From positions 15,069 through 79,068 of the forward strand of contig JAFTUH010000040.1 of assembly GCA_017466375.1 (NCBI GenBank): a stretch of 64,000 nt of DNA, given 5' to 3'. The notes under the pieces are model-generated. The model was not told the origin of the DNA and made no database searches. It saw nothing but the letters and a program-made list of their open reading frames with translations. The translations under genes were made by a program, and so were the position numbers. This document shows positions 32,962 through 38,899 of the stretch, piece after piece (the first letter of the stretch is position 1; every line of letters starts with the position of its first letter). The DNA is from Clostridia bacterium (GTDB lineage Bacteria > Bacillota > Clostridia > Oscillospirales > CAG-272).

Positions 32962-32990
32962 TAGACAAAACGAAAAAAATATGTTACAAT
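32962..32990 (+). promoter_or_regulatory. candidate folA promoter
   Basis: TAGACA (32962-32967), a 17-nt spacer, then TGT-TACAAT (extended -10; TACAAT at 32985-32990). Confidence 0.45.
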
Positions 32991-33021: not shown

Positions 33022-33516
33022 ATGACTGCACTGATCGCGGCTTTTGCAGACAATCGGGTGATGGGCAAGAACGGCCGTCTGCCGTGGCACATTCCCGAGG
33101 ACTTGAAGCGATTCCGCTCCCTGACGGAGGGGCACACCGTCATCATGGGGCGACGCTCGTTTGAGGAAATCGGCAGAGCACTTGCCAACCGTCAGACGAT
33201 CGTCCTCAGCCGGAATCCCGCATTCGCCGCGGAGGGCTGCACCGTCGCATGCTCGCTCACCGAAGCCATCTCCCTCGCCGACCGGACGGAAATTTTCATC
33301 GCTGGCGGTGCGTCCGTATATGCCGAAGCACTCCCTCTGTGCGATCGGCTGTATATCACGAGAATCGACGCACCCTTTGACGGAGACACGTTCTTCCCCG
33401 ATTTTGACGAGACGGCGTTTTCTCTCACGGAGGAGACCGCTGTTTCGGGAGAGATTCCCTGCCGCTTTCTCACCTACGATCGGATCCGTCACAAAATTTC
33501 GGCGGAAGATTTTTGA
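33022..33516 (+). CDS. folA: dihydrofolate reductase
   Basis: IAAFADNRVMGKNGRLPWHIPEDLKRFRSLTEGHTVIMGRRSFEEIG. RBS AAAGGAGAG. Confidence 0.93.
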   Translation: MTALIAAFADNRVMGKNGRLPWHIPEDLKRFRSLTEGHTVIMGRRSFEEIGRALANRQTIVLSRNPAFAAEGCTVACSLTEAISLADRTEIFIAGGASVYAEALPLCDRLYITRIDAPFDGDTFFPDFDETAFSLTEETAVSGEIPCRFLTYDRIRHKISAEDF

Positions 33517-33604
33517 ACCCGTCACAATCATTTCACATTTCTGTCAGCCAGCTGTCATTTGCGGGCGATATAATATCGGTATGAAGCACGAAAGGAGGTC
33601 CCGT

Positions 33605-34339
33605 ATGCCGTCTGTCCAGCAGATTTTCGAGCGAAAAGAGAAAAAGTATCTCCTCTCCGAAAAAGAGAAGGATGCCCTGCTTGCGCGCATCGGCGACCGC
33701 CTCACACCGGATAAATACGGTCATTCCACCGTGTGCAGTCTGTATTTCGACACAGCGGATTACCGCATAATCCGTGCCTCCATCGGTGCACGGACGTACA
33801 AGGAAAAGCTCCGTCTTCGCTGCTATGGCACCCCGGACACCGACAGCACCGTATTTCTGGAGCTCAAAAAGAAATACCGCGGCGTAGTCTACAAGCGGCG
33901 CGAAAAAATACCCCTCTCCGCCGCATACGATTACATCAACACAGGCGTACTGCCGAAAGACACGCAGATCATGCGTGAGATCGACTGGATGCGGAAGACG
34001 AATGACCTCGCCCCCGTAATCCTGCTCGCGTATGACCGGGAGGCTTTCTATTCGGAGGAGATCGCAGGACTGCGCCTCACCTTTGACACAAACGTGCGCT
34101 TCCGCACGGAGGATCTCCGCCTTGAGCACGGCCCGGACGGGCAGACGCTCCTCCCGACGGGCAGATACATTCTCGAGATCAAAACGCTCGGGGCGATGCC
34201 TTTGTGGCTGACGCACGAGCTGGACGCACTTTCCCTCTATCCGACCTCGTTTTCCAAATACGGCACGGCGTACAAAGAGTATCTCTGCCCTGCCCACGCC
34301 GATCATTTTTCACCGATACAGGAGGCATTCCATGCTTAA
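33605..34339 (+). CDS. VTC-domain (polyphosphate polymerase domain, CYTH-like tunnel fold) protein
   Basis: FERKEKKYLL...CSLYFDT...YKEKLRLRCYG...LELKKKYRGVVYKRR...LEIK pattern, typical of bacterial VTC-domain proteins. Start placed at ATG 33605, after GAAAGGAGG; the upstream part of track ORF 33161.. overlaps folA. Confidence 0.8.
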   Translation: MPSVQQIFERKEKKYLLSEKEKDALLARIGDRLTPDKYGHSTVCSLYFDTADYRIIRASIGARTYKEKLRLRCYGTPDTDSTVFLELKKKYRGVVYKRREKIPLSAAYDYINTGVLPKDTQIMREIDWMRKTNDLAPVILLAYDREAFYSEEIAGLRLTFDTNVRFRTEDLRLEHGPDGQTLLPTGRYILEIKTLGAMPLWLTHELDALSLYPTSFSKYGTAYKEYLCPAHADHFSPIQEAFHA

Positions 34340-35006
34340 CGCTCTGTTTCAGCCGCTGTTTACTACCTCGTTTACGCTTTCGAATTACCTCATCTGCACC
34401 GCCGTCGCCCTCGTGCTCGGCGTAATCACGGCTGCCGCCGCGTCCTTCCGCACGACGGCTTCGCGCAGTTTTCTTCTATCCCTCGTCCTTCTGCCGCCGA
34501 TCGTGCAGACGGTTATCATGCTCGTCAACGGCAGTATCGGCACAGGTATCGCCGTCATGGGCGCGTTCAGTCTCGTCCGTTTTCGTTCCATGCCCGGCAG
34601 CGCCCGAGAAATCGCCACGATCTTTCTTTCGATGGCGATCGGTCTTGCTACCGCTACGGGATATCTCGGTATCGCCGTCCTTCTCACGCTGATCCTCTCT
34701 GCGGTACTCGTGATTGCCGCGCTTCCCGTTTTTGCACCGAAGCAGGTGCGCCAGCTCGTCATCACCGTACCCGAATCCCTCAACTATGCGCACGCTTTTG
34801 ACGACGTGTTTGCCAAATACGCAAAAAATGTCCGACTTATTTCCGTGAAAACGACGCACATGGGCAGTCTGTTCAAGCTCACGTACACGCTGTCCATCGC
34901 TGACACGGAGAAAGAAAAAGAGCTGATCGACGCGCTCCGTTGCCGCAACGGCAATCTGGAAATTGCACTCGGGGTCGCTGCCGGTGCAGAGGGAGAACTT
35001 TTATGA
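34332..35006 (+). CDS. DUF4956-family membrane protein
   Basis: Four to five TM helices with the conserved AFSLVRFRS segment, and a soluble C-terminal domain. The ATG overlaps the end of the VTC gene by 8 nt. RBS AGGAGG. Confidence 0.8.
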   Translation: MLNALFQPLFTTSFTLSNYLICTAVALVLGVITAAAASFRTTASRSFLLSLVLLPPIVQTVIMLVNGSIGTGIAVMGAFSLVRFRSMPGSAREIATIFLSMAIGLATATGYLGIAVLLTLILSAVLVIAALPVFAPKQVRQLVITVPESLNYAHAFDDVFAKYAKNVRLISVKTTHMGSLFKLTYTLSIADTEKEKELIDALRCRNGNLEIALGVAAGAEGELL

Positions 35007-36985
35007 AAAAAACGCGCTTGGCAACATATGTAATCCCGCTTTTAATCGCCGCCGTCACGCTCACTGCGTGCGCCGATATGACAACACCGCCGTCTCAGAC
35101 TGACGACGGTGTTTTTCAAGAGATCACCGACGGCGGCTCCGTAAACACGCCCGACACGGGTGCCTCCGTCGATGCAGATACCGCACCGGGCGATTTCGAC
35201 CTCTCCGTATCGGATCGCGACACAGACGCTTCTTACGGTACTGTAATCGCCACGGTCACGTTTTCGGACACCGCCGTTACGATCAGCGGCACGGGCGTCT
35301 CCGCCGACGGTACCGCCGTCACGATTTCACAAGCGGGCACGTATATCCTCACGGGATCGTGCGCCGACGGATCGGTAACGGTCAACATCCCCGTCGAGGA
35401 TAAGGCACAGATCGTCCTGGACGGGCTTTCGCTCACCGCAAAAAACGGTGCCCCTCTCGTAATCGAACAGGCGGACAAAGTATTTTTGACGCTTGCAGAA
35501 AACACAATAAATACCCTCTCCGACGCTGCCGATTATACGCTTACGGCAGGTGATTCCACCGTGGATGCGGCAATCTTCTCCAAAGAGGATCTGACCATCA
35601 ACGGCACAGGATCGCTCACCGTAAACGGAAGCTATAAGCACGGCATCGTCTCGAAGGACGATCTCGTCATTACAGGCGGCACGATCACCGTTACTGCCGC
35701 ATCCACCGCCATCGACGGCAAGGACAGCGTGCGCCTCACGGGCGATCCCGTTATCACCGTAAATGCAGGCACGAACGGCATACGTTCGACAAATGCCGAA
35801 GACCCAGAGCGCGGATACGTATGGATCGACGGCGGTACGGTTACCGTAAACGCCGGCACAGACGGGATCGAAGCCGTCACGCTATTGCGCATCGACGGCG
35901 GTGCGATCAAGCTGGCAACGGGCGGCGGCTCGGCAAACGCATCCACGACCACGGACGGCGGCAGAAACGTCGGCTGGGGTATGTGGGGCGGTTATCCCGG
36001 GTATCCCGGCGGACACGGACAGACGACAAGCGAAGATTCCGCCAGCGCCAAGGCGCTCAAATCCACCGGCGATATTATGATTACGGACGGCGTAATCACG
36101 ATCGATTCCTCCGATGACGCAATCCACGCGAATGCAAACGTGACGATCACAGGCGGCACGATCACTGCTGCCTCCGGTGACGACGGCATCCACGCCGATA
36201 CAAAGCTTACGATCACAGGCGGCGATATCACGGTGACGAAAAGCTACGAGGGACTCGAAGCAACGGATATCGTATTCGCAGGCGGACGCGCCTACATCAC
36301 GGCAAGCGATGACGGGTTGAACGCCGCGGGCGGCAACGACGGATCCTCTTTCGGCGGCGGTATGGGACGCCCGGGACAGAATCCGTTCTCCGGCACGACG
36401 GGGACGCTGACCATTGCGGGCGGATACCTGATCGTGAACGCGGCCAGCGACGGCGTGGACTCCAACGGCACGCTCACCGTGACGGGCGGCGTAACGCTTG
36501 TATCCGGACCGACGAACAGCGGCAACGGCGCGTTGGATTATCAGTCGGGCGCATCGATCACGGGCGGCACGTTTATCGCATGCGGTGCTTCCGGCATGGC
36601 GCAGAATTTCTCCGACGCCTCGCAGGGCTGCATCATGGTAAACGTGCAGACGCAGCCGGCAAACAGCCCGATTGCGATCTGTGACGCAGACGGCACGGTA
36701 CTTGCCTCCTTTACGCCCATGAAGGCGTATCAAAACATCGTTATCAGCACGCCTTCCCTTAAAAAGGACGGCACATACGCGATCCGCACGGGTGAGATCC
36801 CGACCGCGGACGGATTCGGCTATGCGGCAGGTGGCACGATGGAAAACGGCACCGTGCTCGCTGAAATCGAGCTGTCCTCCCTCATCTGCGGCGGCGGCAT
36901 GGGCGGATTCGGCAATCCCGGCGGCATGGGCGGTACTCCTCCCGGAGGCTTCGGCGGAGGCGGACGTCCCGGCGGAGGTTGGTAA
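35003..36985 (+). CDS. Cthe_2159-type beta-helix (carbohydrate-binding domain) lipoprotein with a Gly-rich C-terminal tail
   Basis: Start ATG 35003 (ATGA overlap with the DUF4956 stop). Signal peptide with lipobox LTAC. Many repeats of the type ITGGTITVTA..DAI.. / DGI.A. Tail is GGGMGGFGNPGGMGGTPPGGFGGGGRPGGGW. Confidence 0.7.
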   Translation: MKKTRLATYVIPLLIAAVTLTACADMTTPPSQTDDGVFQEITDGGSVNTPDTGASVDADTAPGDFDLSVSDRDTDASYGTVIATVTFSDTAVTISGTGVSADGTAVTISQAGTYILTGSCADGSVTVNIPVEDKAQIVLDGLSLTAKNGAPLVIEQADKVFLTLAENTINTLSDAADYTLTAGDSTVDAAIFSKEDLTINGTGSLTVNGSYKHGIVSKDDLVITGGTITVTAASTAIDGKDSVRLTGDPVITVNAGTNGIRSTNAEDPERGYVWIDGGTVTVNAGTDGIEAVTLLRIDGGAIKLATGGGSANASTTTDGGRNVGWGMWGGYPGYPGGHGQTTSEDSASAKALKSTGDIMITDGVITIDSSDDAIHANANVTITGGTITAASGDDGIHADTKLTITGGDITVTKSYEGLEATDIVFAGGRAYITASDDGLNAAGGNDGSSFGGGMGRPGQNPFSGTTGTLTIAGGYLIVNAASDGVDSNGTLTVTGGVTLVSGPTNSGNGALDYQSGASITGGTFIACGASGMAQNFSDASQGCIMVNVQTQPANSPIAICDADGTVLASFTPMKAYQNIVISTPSLKKDGTYAIRTGEIPTADGFGYAAGGTMENGTVLAEIELSSLICGGGMGGFGNPGGMGGTPPGGFGGGGRPGGGW

Positions 36986-36996
36986 TACAAAAGCGG

Positions 36997-37027
36997 AACA
37001 GCTGTAAAAAATTACAGCTGTTTTTGC
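36997..37027 (+). terminator. rho-independent terminator
   Basis: AACAGCTGTAA/TTACAGCTGTT stem (36997-37007/37012-37022) with loop AAAA, followed by TTTTGC. Confidence 0.7.
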
Positions 37028-37103
37028 ATTTCAGTGTAACTTTTCTGCCGAAACGGTGTCTATATAGGTGAAAGGCCTTATCCGTACAGAAAGGAAAGCA
37101 AAG

Positions 37104-37661
37104 ATGGATGACAATCGTATTATAGACATGTACTTTGCGCGCAGTGAAGACGCGATCGCCGAAACGGACAAAAAATACGGGCGGTACTGCCGCACCATTG
37201 CGTACAATATCCTCTTCTCCCACGAGGATGCGGAGGAATGCGTCAGCGACACGTACATGAAAGCGTGGGATTCGATGCCCCCGCAAAAGCCGCTGTACCT
37301 CGCCGCATTTCTCGGAAAAATCACGCGCAATCTGTCGCTGAACCGCTTCAAGAGGGAGCACGCACAAAAAAGAAGCGGCGGCGTACAGGTAGTATTCGAT
37401 GAACTTGCAGAATGCATCCCCGATCCGTCCGCAGATGACGACATCAGCGATGAAATCGTGCTGAAAGAAGCACTCAACTCCTTTTTGGCTGCTTTATCGC
37501 CGCTGCATCGCGTCATCTTTGTGCGCAGATACTGGTATCTCACCCCGCTGAAGGAAATCGCCGCAGCATACGGCTGCACAGAAGGCAGCGTAAAATCGAT
37601 ACTTTCACGCACACGCACCCGTTTCCGAAAACATCTTGAGAAAGAAGGAATCCGTATATGA
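37104..37661 (+). CDS. ECF-type RNA polymerase sigma-70 family factor
   Basis: Region 2 (EDAEECVSDTYMKAW) and region 4 HTH (LKEIAAAYGCTEGSVKSILSRTRTRFRKHL). Start moved to ATG 37104, preceded by GAAAGGAAAG. Confidence 0.85.
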   Translation: MDDNRIIDMYFARSEDAIAETDKKYGRYCRTIAYNILFSHEDAEECVSDTYMKAWDSMPPQKPLYLAAFLGKITRNLSLNRFKREHAQKRSGGVQVVFDELAECIPDPSADDDISDEIVLKEALNSFLAALSPLHRVIFVRRYWYLTPLKEIAAAYGCTEGSVKSILSRTRTRFRKHLEKEGIRI

Positions 37662-38860
37662 AATGTATGAAACTGCTCGAAGCCTTTGGGCTGATTCACG
37701 AATCCTACGTTACCGAAGCCTCCCCGGAAAATGAAAAGAAAATCTCCCGCGGAAATGCTTCCCGACTCGCGCTCCGCTACGGTGCGCTTGCCGCCGCCCT
37801 TGCCCTCGTAATTCTCGGCGGCATGCAGCTCTACCGCCAAAGCCTGCCGCAGTACGCCACGGAAATGCTCTCCGTTTCGGAAACGGATATCGGCATGGGA
37901 TTCGAGGGATATCAGGTATACGAGATCAGTGAGCTCCGCACGGACAACCCGACAGACGGAAAAGCGATCACATCACTGAACGCATACCGAAACACGATCT
38001 CTTACGACGAGCGGCTGTACCCGTACGGACAGGATCTGGACGCTATGAAAGCATATCTGCTTTCGCTCGCGGATAAACTCGGGCTGGACACCGACACGCT
38101 CGAAATCCTTGACAACGCGCCCGGCGAAGGGCAGATGCAGGGACTTATCATGGAATTTGCCTCCCGCGGTCTGGAAGTACCGGAATACTATAAGCTCCCC
38201 TACATCGTGTATGTACAAACGGAGAATTACAGAATCGAAGTAAACGCCGATATGACGGCGACAATCTTTTTCACAGAGCGGCCCACTCTCCCCGCAGAGT
38301 ATCACTTCACACACACCTCCACACCGGAAGAGCTCGCCGCGGCAGGTGAATATCTGTGGTCGCAGTACGGCGATCTTGTCGGATACGAGAATCCGCAGAT
38401 GCGAATCAAGGGCGGTAACTACAGCATCGAAGGCACGCAGTCGTACAGTCTCGCTTTTTATGAAGGAGAGCGAGATAAAACAGAGAATTTCGAGAACTAT
38501 TCCTTCAACCGCGCCGAATTCGCCCCCGACTCCGACGGAAAGTTGTACCTGATCCACATCTACAGCGACGCAGCACTGGAAAAGATCGGACTGTATCCCC
38601 TCATCAGCGAAGAGGCGGCGAAAGCGCTCCTGCTCGACGGTCAGTATTACACAAGCGTCACGGAAGAATTCCCCGGCGAGGATGCGGTTGTACGGTGCGA
38701 ACTCATGTACCGTGCCGGCAGTAAGGATAAGATTCTTCTGCCGTTCTACCGCTTCTATGTACTGCTCGAGAATGCGCCCGGCATGCATCTGTATCCCGAC
38801 GGTATGCAAACATACGGTGCGTACTATGTGCCCGCCGTCGATCCTGCCTATCTGCAGTAA
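37658..38860 (+). CDS. single-pass membrane protein, putative cognate anti-sigma factor
   Basis: ATGA overlap with the sigma gene stop. Short cytoplasmic N-terminus, one TM (YGALAAALALVILGGMQLY) and a ~330-aa extracytoplasmic domain. No ZAS motif seen. Confidence 0.55.
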   Translation: MKCMKLLEAFGLIHESYVTEASPENEKKISRGNASRLALRYGALAAALALVILGGMQLYRQSLPQYATEMLSVSETDIGMGFEGYQVYEISELRTDNPTDGKAITSLNAYRNTISYDERLYPYGQDLDAMKAYLLSLADKLGLDTDTLEILDNAPGEGQMQGLIMEFASRGLEVPEYYKLPYIVYVQTENYRIEVNADMTATIFFTERPTLPAEYHFTHTSTPEELAAAGEYLWSQYGDLVGYENPQMRIKGGNYSIEGTQSYSLAFYEGERDKTENFENYSFNRAEFAPDSDGKLYLIHIYSDAALEKIGLYPLISEEAAKALLLDGQYYTSVTEEFPGEDAVVRCELMYRAGSKDKILLPFYRFYVLLENAPGMHLYPDGMQTYGAYYVPAVDPAYLQ

Positions 38861-38867
38861 AAGAAAC

Positions 38868-38899
38868 GAGGTGCCAAAAGGCACCTCTTCTTTCTTTTC
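38868..38899 (+). terminator. rho-independent terminator
   Basis: GAGGTGCC/GGCACCTC stem (38868-38875/38880-38887) with loop AAAA, then TTCTTTCTTTTC. Confidence 0.7.

Follow-up and report, generated by a model that had tools for sequence, protein, structure and literature searches.

A VTC-domain, DUF4956 and Cthe_2159-type lipoprotein gene trio in a Clostridia genome: one variant of a widespread bacterial module with a possible link to polyphosphate at the cell surface

Why would a bacterium couple the gene for a cytoplasmic relative of the yeast polyphosphate polymerase to genes for a membrane protein and a surface lipoprotein? The question is raised by three consecutive genes at positions 33605-36985 (plus strand) of a 64,000-nucleotide stretch of a Clostridia bacterium genome (assembly GCA_017466375.1, contig JAFTUH010000040.1, positions 15,069 to 79,068), the whole of which is referred to here as the window. 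The genes encode a VTC-domain protein, a DUF4956 protein and a lipoprotein of the Cthe_2159 type. The trio represents a widespread bacterial module in its Cthe_2159-linked form; the CotH-linked form has already been described at pel loci. Its most likely function, which we propose tentatively, is that of a membrane-bound polyphosphate polymerase with an output that would reach the cell surface.

An obligate gene pair with exported partners

The VTC gene (33605-34339) encodes a Vtc4-like triphosphate tunnel enzyme of 244 amino acids predicted to be cytoplasmic, the DUF4956 gene (34332-35006) a membrane protein of 224 amino acids with five helices and a C-terminal ACT-like domain, and the third gene (35003-36985) an acidic surface lipoprotein of 660 amino acids with parallel beta-helix repeats and a Gly-rich tail. 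All are on the plus strand. A preliminary description of the locus, made from the letters of the sequence, had the three genes coupled through an 8-nucleotide and an ATGA overlap, and the open reading frame coordinates agree. The VTC stop codon (TAA, 34337-34339) lies downstream of the DUF4956 ATG at 34332, giving the 8-nucleotide overlap, and the DUF4956 stop codon (TGA) shares the 4-nucleotide ATGA at 35003-35006 with the lipoprotein ATG. An AGGAGG motif occurs 7 nucleotides upstream of the DUF4956 ATG.

Co-occurrence of the three families, proposed as a check on the preliminary description, is strong. We fetched 80 independent loci as the top-scoring hits of a VTC profile built on close relatives, a choice that restricts them to one clade. 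All but one (79) have DUF4956 after VTC on the same strand, mostly with overlaps of 8 or 17 nucleotides, and a Cthe_2159 gene is directly next in 53. A rare split of the pair was seen in one genome of the same order, where VTC stands alone (L093, G190:C23) and DUF4956 is found with Cthe_2159 on another contig (L123, G190:C16). We also surveyed an unbiased phylum sample of 201 genomes, in which related genomes are not independent and counts are thus given without P-values. The same 31 genomes, scattered over many family codes, encode VTC and DUF4956, in copy numbers that match, and no other genome of the sample encodes either. Cthe_2159 genes are present in 16 genomes; the 13 that also encode VTC account for all of the strong matches (E of 1e-46 or better). 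CotH genes were found in 27 genomes, 24 of them with VTC. The trio is thus far from a chance arrangement. That the genes are neighbours by chance or through shared regulation alone is scarcely conceivable, as this idea has in its favour the highly variable flanking context and is already contradicted by the conserved translational overlaps, the adjacency of the pair and of the trio, and the perfect co-occurrence of VTC and DUF4956.

Trees of 117 VTC and 115 DUF4956 proteins, including all 36 VTC loci of the phylum sample, were made by a quick method, and share the same deep split (SH-aLRT, the Shimodaira-Hasegawa-like approximate likelihood ratio test, of 100) on a long central branch that carries a tool warning. 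In each tree the partner labels separate perfectly. One clade holds every pair that adjoins a CotH gene (20) and no pair that adjoins Cthe_2159; every pair that adjoins a Cthe_2159 gene (59) falls in the other, clade B, to which the window belongs. Several genomes (G022, G186, G168, G012) encode both kinds of module, with one of each. Regardless of the clade, the third partner lies outside the cytoplasm in every case, as a signal peptide, a lipobox or an N-terminal or membrane anchor occurs in each of the 62 Cthe_2159 and 19 CotH proteins.

The preliminary description had suggested looking for CotH kinases beside the trio. CotH does go with VTC and DUF4956, but in the deeply separated sister clade rather than that of the window. 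We rejected CotH as a partner of the module of the window, as it adjoins only 3 of the 80 clade B loci. None was found within this module, and the two CotH-family genes of the genome sit on other contigs, away from any VTC gene (G000:C40:5705-6709, L002, and G000:C58:5313-6329, L003). At the three exceptional loci (L060, L061 and L063), CotH and Cthe_2159 are encoded in one operon, indicating that the two kinds of exported partner can share one. In each, a gene for a large Lamin-tail/CotH protein lies directly upstream of VTC-DUF4956-Cthe_2159 (L060:2142-4583, L061:3957-6668, L063:7545-10004).

The CotH-type form is known as a cassette of cotH, polyphosphate-polymerase and DUF4956 genes that are accessory genes of Gram-positive pel loci (10.1101/768473). 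A similar arrangement exists in the NELoc-2 locus of Clostridium perfringens, which, with families as listed there, encodes a sigma factor, two VTC proteins each followed by a membrane protein of ~225 amino acids, a CotH protein and a 685-amino-acid protein (PMC2879425). The trio shares with these loci the VTC-DUF4956 pair and an exported third protein. In contrast, the pel cassette pairs fall in the deeply separated clade of both trees and have a CotH partner, whereas the module of the window has Cthe_2159, stands alone, with no adjoining pel genes. We found the beta-helix variant of the module in no paper of the searched literature, which also held none joining Cthe_2159 with polyphosphate or VTC, and in which DUF4956 is seldom mentioned.

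The tunnel enzyme, the membrane protein and the lipoprotein

All three family assignments of the preliminary description were borne out by Pfam searches. The VTC protein scores 138.4 bits with PF09359 (cut-off 23; E=3.6e-40), in a match that spans residues 9-224 of the protein and positions 1-232 of the 235 in the profile. This is its sole Pfam match, and neither transmembrane helices nor an SPX domain were identified in its 244 amino acids. It is one of at least 8000 single-domain VTC proteins of ~240 amino acids. The AlphaFold2 model, based on 28 homologues, has a pLDDT (predicted local distance difference test) of 86.1. In a Foldseek search with this model, Vtc4 structures occupy ranks 1-9 and the inactive paralogues Vtc2 and Vtc3 ranks 10-13, with other tunnel enzymes after these. 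The template modelling (TM) scores against Vtc4 (3g3q, 3g3r) are 0.70-0.72.

The tunnel Lys and Arg residues, singled out in the preliminary description as the ones to check, are conserved. A hidden Markov model alignment places K14, R70, R72, K88, Y143, R145 and R157 of the window protein at K200, R264, R266, K281, Y359, R361 and R373 of Vtc4. The first six of these Vtc4 residues bind triphosphate and are required for polyphosphate synthesis in yeast; R373 is not on that list (10.1101/2023.01.27.525886). Across 117 homologues there is little or no variation at the mapped residues or at E191 and S217-K218. Based on the fold match and on motifs, E191 and S217-K218 probably correspond to the Mn-binding E426 and to S457-K458 of Vtc4.

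In hydrolytic tunnel enzymes a second metal site is formed by the glutamates of the ExExK motif and the second glutamate of an ExE motif, and Vtc4 lacks that site (PMC4641920). The corresponding motifs of the window protein, R10-x-E12-x-K14 and E191-x-K193, hold in 115-116 of 117 sequences. Arg and Lys, both basic and invariant, take the place of two of the three site-2 glutamates, so that the acidic-patch motifs of the hydrolases are not matched. This replacement favours, without proving, a polymerase of the Vtc4 type over a hydrolase. The hydrolytic tunnel enzymes (Escherichia coli YgiF, AtTTM3 and CYTH adenylate cyclases) share the fold and are the second-best structural matches; the window protein differs from them in being without the two site-2 glutamates.

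The DUF4956 protein matches Pfam PF16316 (E=5.9e-15). Its AlphaFold2 model (pLDDT 88) has five helices followed by a C-terminal domain with a ferredoxin-like beta-alpha-beta-beta-alpha-beta arrangement, which matches the ACT, CutA and PII folds. Profile-profile alignment (hhalign) with 17 true MgtC proteins gave a probability of 95.6% and E=1.2e-8 over 188 columns, the whole length of the protein. The Pfam MgtC model is matched weakly, below its gathering score, by 23 of 67 DUF4956 proteins (best E=0.017). By these profile comparisons DUF4956 is a remote homologue of MgtC, and a preprint on Streptococcus intermedius had already named its DUF4956 protein an MgtC homologue (10.1101/2024.04.20.589940). 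DUF4956 and the MgtC/SapB family (PF02308) are of similar size, and both combine a hydrophobic N-terminal domain with an ACT-like C-terminal domain; DUF4956 is strictly tied to a VTC gene, whereas MgtC is not. A true MgtC-family gene was seen elsewhere in the genome that encodes the MgtC-like DUF4956 protein (G000:C16:18509-18892, L134). The positive-inside rule would place the N-terminus outside and the C-terminal domain inside. The invariant residues include R83 and R85, in a cytoplasmic loop by this topology, and D200-x-x-R-x-R-N-G-N-L in the C-terminal domain.

The third protein matches Pfam Cthe_2159 (PF14262) with E=4.1e-92 (308.6 bits) and, over residues 75-312, the crystal structure of Cthe_2159 (PDB 4peu; E=3.7e-40). 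Its N-terminus, MKKTRLATYVIPLLIAAVTLTAC, comprises a signal peptide and a lipobox, L-T-A-C, at residues 20-23 (criterion [LVI][ASTVI][GAS]C), and the lipobox Cys23 is kept in at least 90% of 54 homologues. With Cthe_2159 of Clostridium thermocellum, a polysaccharide-lyase-like beta-helix (4PEU/4PHB), it shares the homologous region and the repeat type. It differs in being twice as long and lipid-anchored, and in its Gly-rich tail. This tail (36860-36985), with a Trp at its end, is poorly conserved in length, and occupancy falls past residue 600 among the 54 homologues. The lipoproteins are uniformly acidic, with isoelectric points of 4.05-4.65 among the homologues. Nearly all of the conserved non-glycine residues are Asp, Glu or Asn, with one Lys. 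This pattern is a better fit for cation binding or catalysis than for a protein that binds a polyanion directly, and the lipoprotein is probably Ca2+-binding.

Promoters, flanking genes and the signalling pair

In close relatives, too, the module lies between a peptidoglycan-binding operon and prfC. Two relatives (L150, L151) match the window, a third (L148) is without the dihydrofolate reductase gene described below, and in a fourth (L149) a BlaI/BlaR1-like pair replaces the sigma factor pair. Because the relatives vary in the other genes at this site, we consider VTC and DUF4956 to be the stable core of the module, to which the lipoprotein and the signalling pair are accessory.

Upstream of the trio, a sigma-70-type promoter-like site, TAGACA-17-TACAAT with a TG (32962..32990, plus strand), is likely the promoter of the unit, as T(A/G)GACA-N17-TACAAT also occurs upstream of VTC in L148, L149 and L152. 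It is followed by a dihydrofolate reductase gene (33022..33516, plus strand; Pfam DHFR_1, E=3.2e-52), which thus sits between the conserved promoter and the VTC leader. The gene is present in L150 and L151 and missing at this site in three close relatives (L148, L149 and L152), and we therefore regard it as a lineage-specific insertion into, or loss from, the 5' region of the operon. Closer to VTC is a conserved block, TTCACATTTCTGTCAG followed by TATAAT (33532..33574, plus strand), that has an identical counterpart in four relatives, with VTC proteins that share 77-96% identity with that of the window. By its conservation it is probably a promoter or operator. The TTCACATTTCTGTCAG part is 16 nucleotides long (33532-33547), with TCACA and CTGTCA repeats around it. 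A riboswitch in the VTC leader was considered and rejected, as there was no Rfam match and no covariation.

Downstream of the trio, an 11-base-pair hairpin followed by a T run (36997..37022, plus strand) is probably a leaky terminator. L148 has A-T in place of one C-G stem pair, a two-sided change that leaves the pairing intact. As the preliminary description had stated, an extracytoplasmic function (ECF) sigma factor gene and a membrane protein gene come directly after the trio. The ECF-type sigma factor gene (37104..37661, plus strand) has Sigma70_r2/r4 and TIGR02937 matches; the open reading frame opens with a GTG at 37068, and the protein is 185 amino acids long from the ATG used in L148 and L150. 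Its ATGA overlaps the gene for a 400-amino-acid single-pass membrane protein (37658..38860, plus strand), a candidate anti-sigma factor with no Pfam match. The pair is kept in L148 and L150, and ends in a strong intrinsic terminator with an 8-base-pair stem, 6 GC pairs and a T run (38868..38887, plus strand).

The sigma factor gene is preceded by an ECF-type promoter motif, GTAAC-N16-TGTCTA (37036..37062, plus strand), that is 100% conserved in L148 and L150. The more general motif GTAAC-N15-17-GTCTA has three matches in the whole genome, two of which flank the module (37036-37062 and 32962-32987, the latter on the minus strand). The minus-strand match faces the divergent peptidoglycan-binding operon and overlaps the better-conserved sigma-70-type promoter, and is ambiguous. 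We rejected the idea that the ECF sigma factor drives the trio, as GTAAC-N16-TGTCTA is missing before the VTC gene.

Transmembrane signalling pairs are swapped beside the module. The site after it holds the sigma gene and the gene for the 400-amino-acid protein, a BlaI/BlaR1-like repressor-sensor pair, or nothing (L148:11483-13239, L149:11222-14794 and L152:4877-5021, respectively). At two other loci (L078, L079) sigma genes lie beside VTC and DUF4956, followed by genes for RsgI-like anti-sigma factors. OmpR-type two-component systems recur as neighbours, at 24 of the 80 loci; with 128 families among 133 flanking genes, we ruled out other recurrent functional neighbours.

Possible functions and their implications

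Among the known systems closest to the trio is the yeast VTC complex (Vtc4/Vtc3/Vtc1; 3G3Q, 3G3R, 7YTJ, 8I6V), with which it has in common the tunnel fold, the Pfam family, the Lys/Arg/Tyr set for triphosphate, probably the Mn-binding Glu (mapped from fold and motifs) and the combination of a cytoplasmic enzyme with a membrane protein. Unlike the yeast complex, the window enzyme is without SPX and without fused transmembrane helices, and has Glu12 at the position of Vtc4 Thr198. Its membrane partner is MgtC-like rather than Vtc1/DUF202-like, and the third component is a surface lipoprotein. The preliminary description had drawn an analogy with yeast, where polyphosphate is passed through a membrane partner. 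The likeness in layout stands, and a relationship of the partner to the Vtc1-type channel does not. Because DUF4956 is MgtC-like, passage of the yeast type is an analogy of layout only.

In the mechanism that we tentatively propose, the VTC protein would dock onto DUF4956, at its ACT-like domain in the cytoplasm and its basic loops, and use ATP to make a phosphate polymer at the membrane. This polymer, or phosphoryl groups that stem from it, would become available outside the membrane, where the acidic, probably Ca2+-binding lipoprotein would be the extracytoplasmic component. We infer the polymerase activity, the contacts between the proteins, the passage across the membrane and the role of the lipoprotein. 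An output at the surface is favoured because every third partner is exported and strong Cthe_2159 matches are found only in genomes with VTC. That neither PPK1, PPK2 nor PPX was seen in the genome of the window also counts in favour of the polymerase reading. A more specific version, in which the module is a PPK-independent polyphosphate synthase-translocase built on an MgtC-like subunit, with surface polyphosphate of gut Clostridia held or trimmed by the Ca2+-binding lipoprotein, is decidedly unlikely.

Several observations weigh against a surface-directed polymerase. E12 of the VTC protein is a retained hydrolase-type glutamate. E191 and S217-K218 lie at the places expected from the fold; their equivalence to E426 and S457-K458 is drawn from the fold match and the motifs, and a profile of residues 150-232 searched against the PDB for a residue-level Vtc4 alignment of the C-terminus gave one chance hit only. 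DUF4956 showed no match to any VTC-complex chain in the PDB, either by sequence and profile or by model fold, so that homology to a Vtc1-like (DUF202) channel was ruled out, and MgtC is known as a regulator that binds other membrane proteins, not as a channel (10.1101/2024.04.20.589940). The preliminary description had the lipoprotein as a polymer-binding protein of the surface, from a family described as binding cellulose- or pectin-like polymers. Direct binding of polyphosphate is unlikely judging from the conserved residues (Asp, Glu and Asn with one Lys), the acidic conserved surface and the isoelectric point of 4.05 of the window protein. The core can do without the lipoprotein, as the close relative L152 retains VTC and DUF4956 alone. 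Deleting the genes of the CotH-type cassette of S. intermedius (SIR_1592-1594) one at a time had little or no effect in rich medium (10.1101/2024.04.20.589940). No assay of a bacterial VTC protein was found in the searched literature, in keeping with the statement of the preliminary description that no bacterial member has a demonstrated function.

A rival reading is intracellular phosphate and magnesium buffering, in which polyphosphate would stay in the cytoplasm, the MgtC-like partner would only anchor or regulate the enzyme (e.g., by ligand sensing via the ACT-like domain) and the lipoprotein would simply be co-expressed. The homology of DUF4956 to MgtC and the occurrence of the pair without the lipoprotein, both in L152 and in 22 of the 80 loci, are consistent with this, and the S. 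intermedius authors suggest cytoplasmic polyphosphate (10.1101/2024.04.20.589940). A genome without PPK1 and PPK2 would also need a housekeeping source of polyphosphate, and no PPK1, PPK2 or PPX was seen in the window's genome, which is 91% complete. However, PPK1 occurs in 32 of the 201 genomes, in 10 of the 31 with VTC versus 22 of the 170 without. VTC is thus not anticorrelated with PPK1, and mutual exclusion, as expected of a PPK1 replacement, is ruled out. Buffering also leaves aside that the third partner is always exported, with a type that follows the VTC/DUF4956 clade, and that Cthe_2159 genes are almost confined to genomes with VTC. We consider it to be on the unlikely side.

Also somewhat improbable is that the tunnel enzyme is not a polymerase but a subunit for processing or sensing triphosphates or nucleotides, through which the MgtC-like protein would be controlled, with the lipoprotein binding glycans or acting as an adhesin, as reported for Cthe_2159. 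Hydrolases and cyclases make up most tunnel enzymes, and AtTTM3 is unable to polymerise although it has the tunnel centre in common with Vtc4 (PMC4641920). E12, a hydrolase-type glutamate, is in line with this reading. For the lipoprotein, so is the Pfam description of the Cthe_2159 family as carbohydrate-binding, and related beta-helices are adhesins. Nevertheless, the substitution of two of three site-2 glutamates argues for a polymerase, the Lys that sets catalytic Vtc4 apart from inactive Vtc2/3 appears to be retained, and the varied flanking genes (128 families among 133) include no recurrent glycan genes. Finally, the pair could deliver phosphoryl donors across the membrane for modification of wall polymers or proteins by CotH or the beta-helix protein. 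The existence of the CotH-linked sister clade and of the L060, L061 and L063 operons with both partners would suit such surface phosphorylation, but the beta-helix protein lacks a kinase-like fold, and neither a CotH-fold kinase that uses polyphosphate nor a substrate is known. It is therefore very unlikely. The surface-directed polymerase remains the reading that we tentatively prefer. VTC is strictly paired with an MgtC-like protein, and the exported partner differs by clade, both of which point to chemistry across the membrane.

Synthesis of polyphosphate in bacteria is attributed in textbooks to PPK1 and PPK2 alone. The module occurs in ~15% of the sampled genomes of the phylum, and two thirds of the genomes that carry it are without PPK1. 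If its Vtc4-type polymerase is active, it would be an unrecognised bacterial source of polyphosphate, because most module genomes are without PPK1 and neither PPK1, PPK2 nor PPX was seen in that of the window. The module also offers a handle on two unknowns, the role of MgtC-family proteins and the targets of exported CotH and Cthe_2159 proteins. Because in this phylum the Cthe_2159 family is essentially confined to genomes with VTC and DUF4956, a purely plant-polymer-binding role is doubtful, and caution is warranted in labelling these proteins as plant-polymer binders. Were the synthase-translocase version true, polyphosphate found outside the cells of gut commensals would have an identified genetic source, and the MgtC superfamily its first transport-type function.

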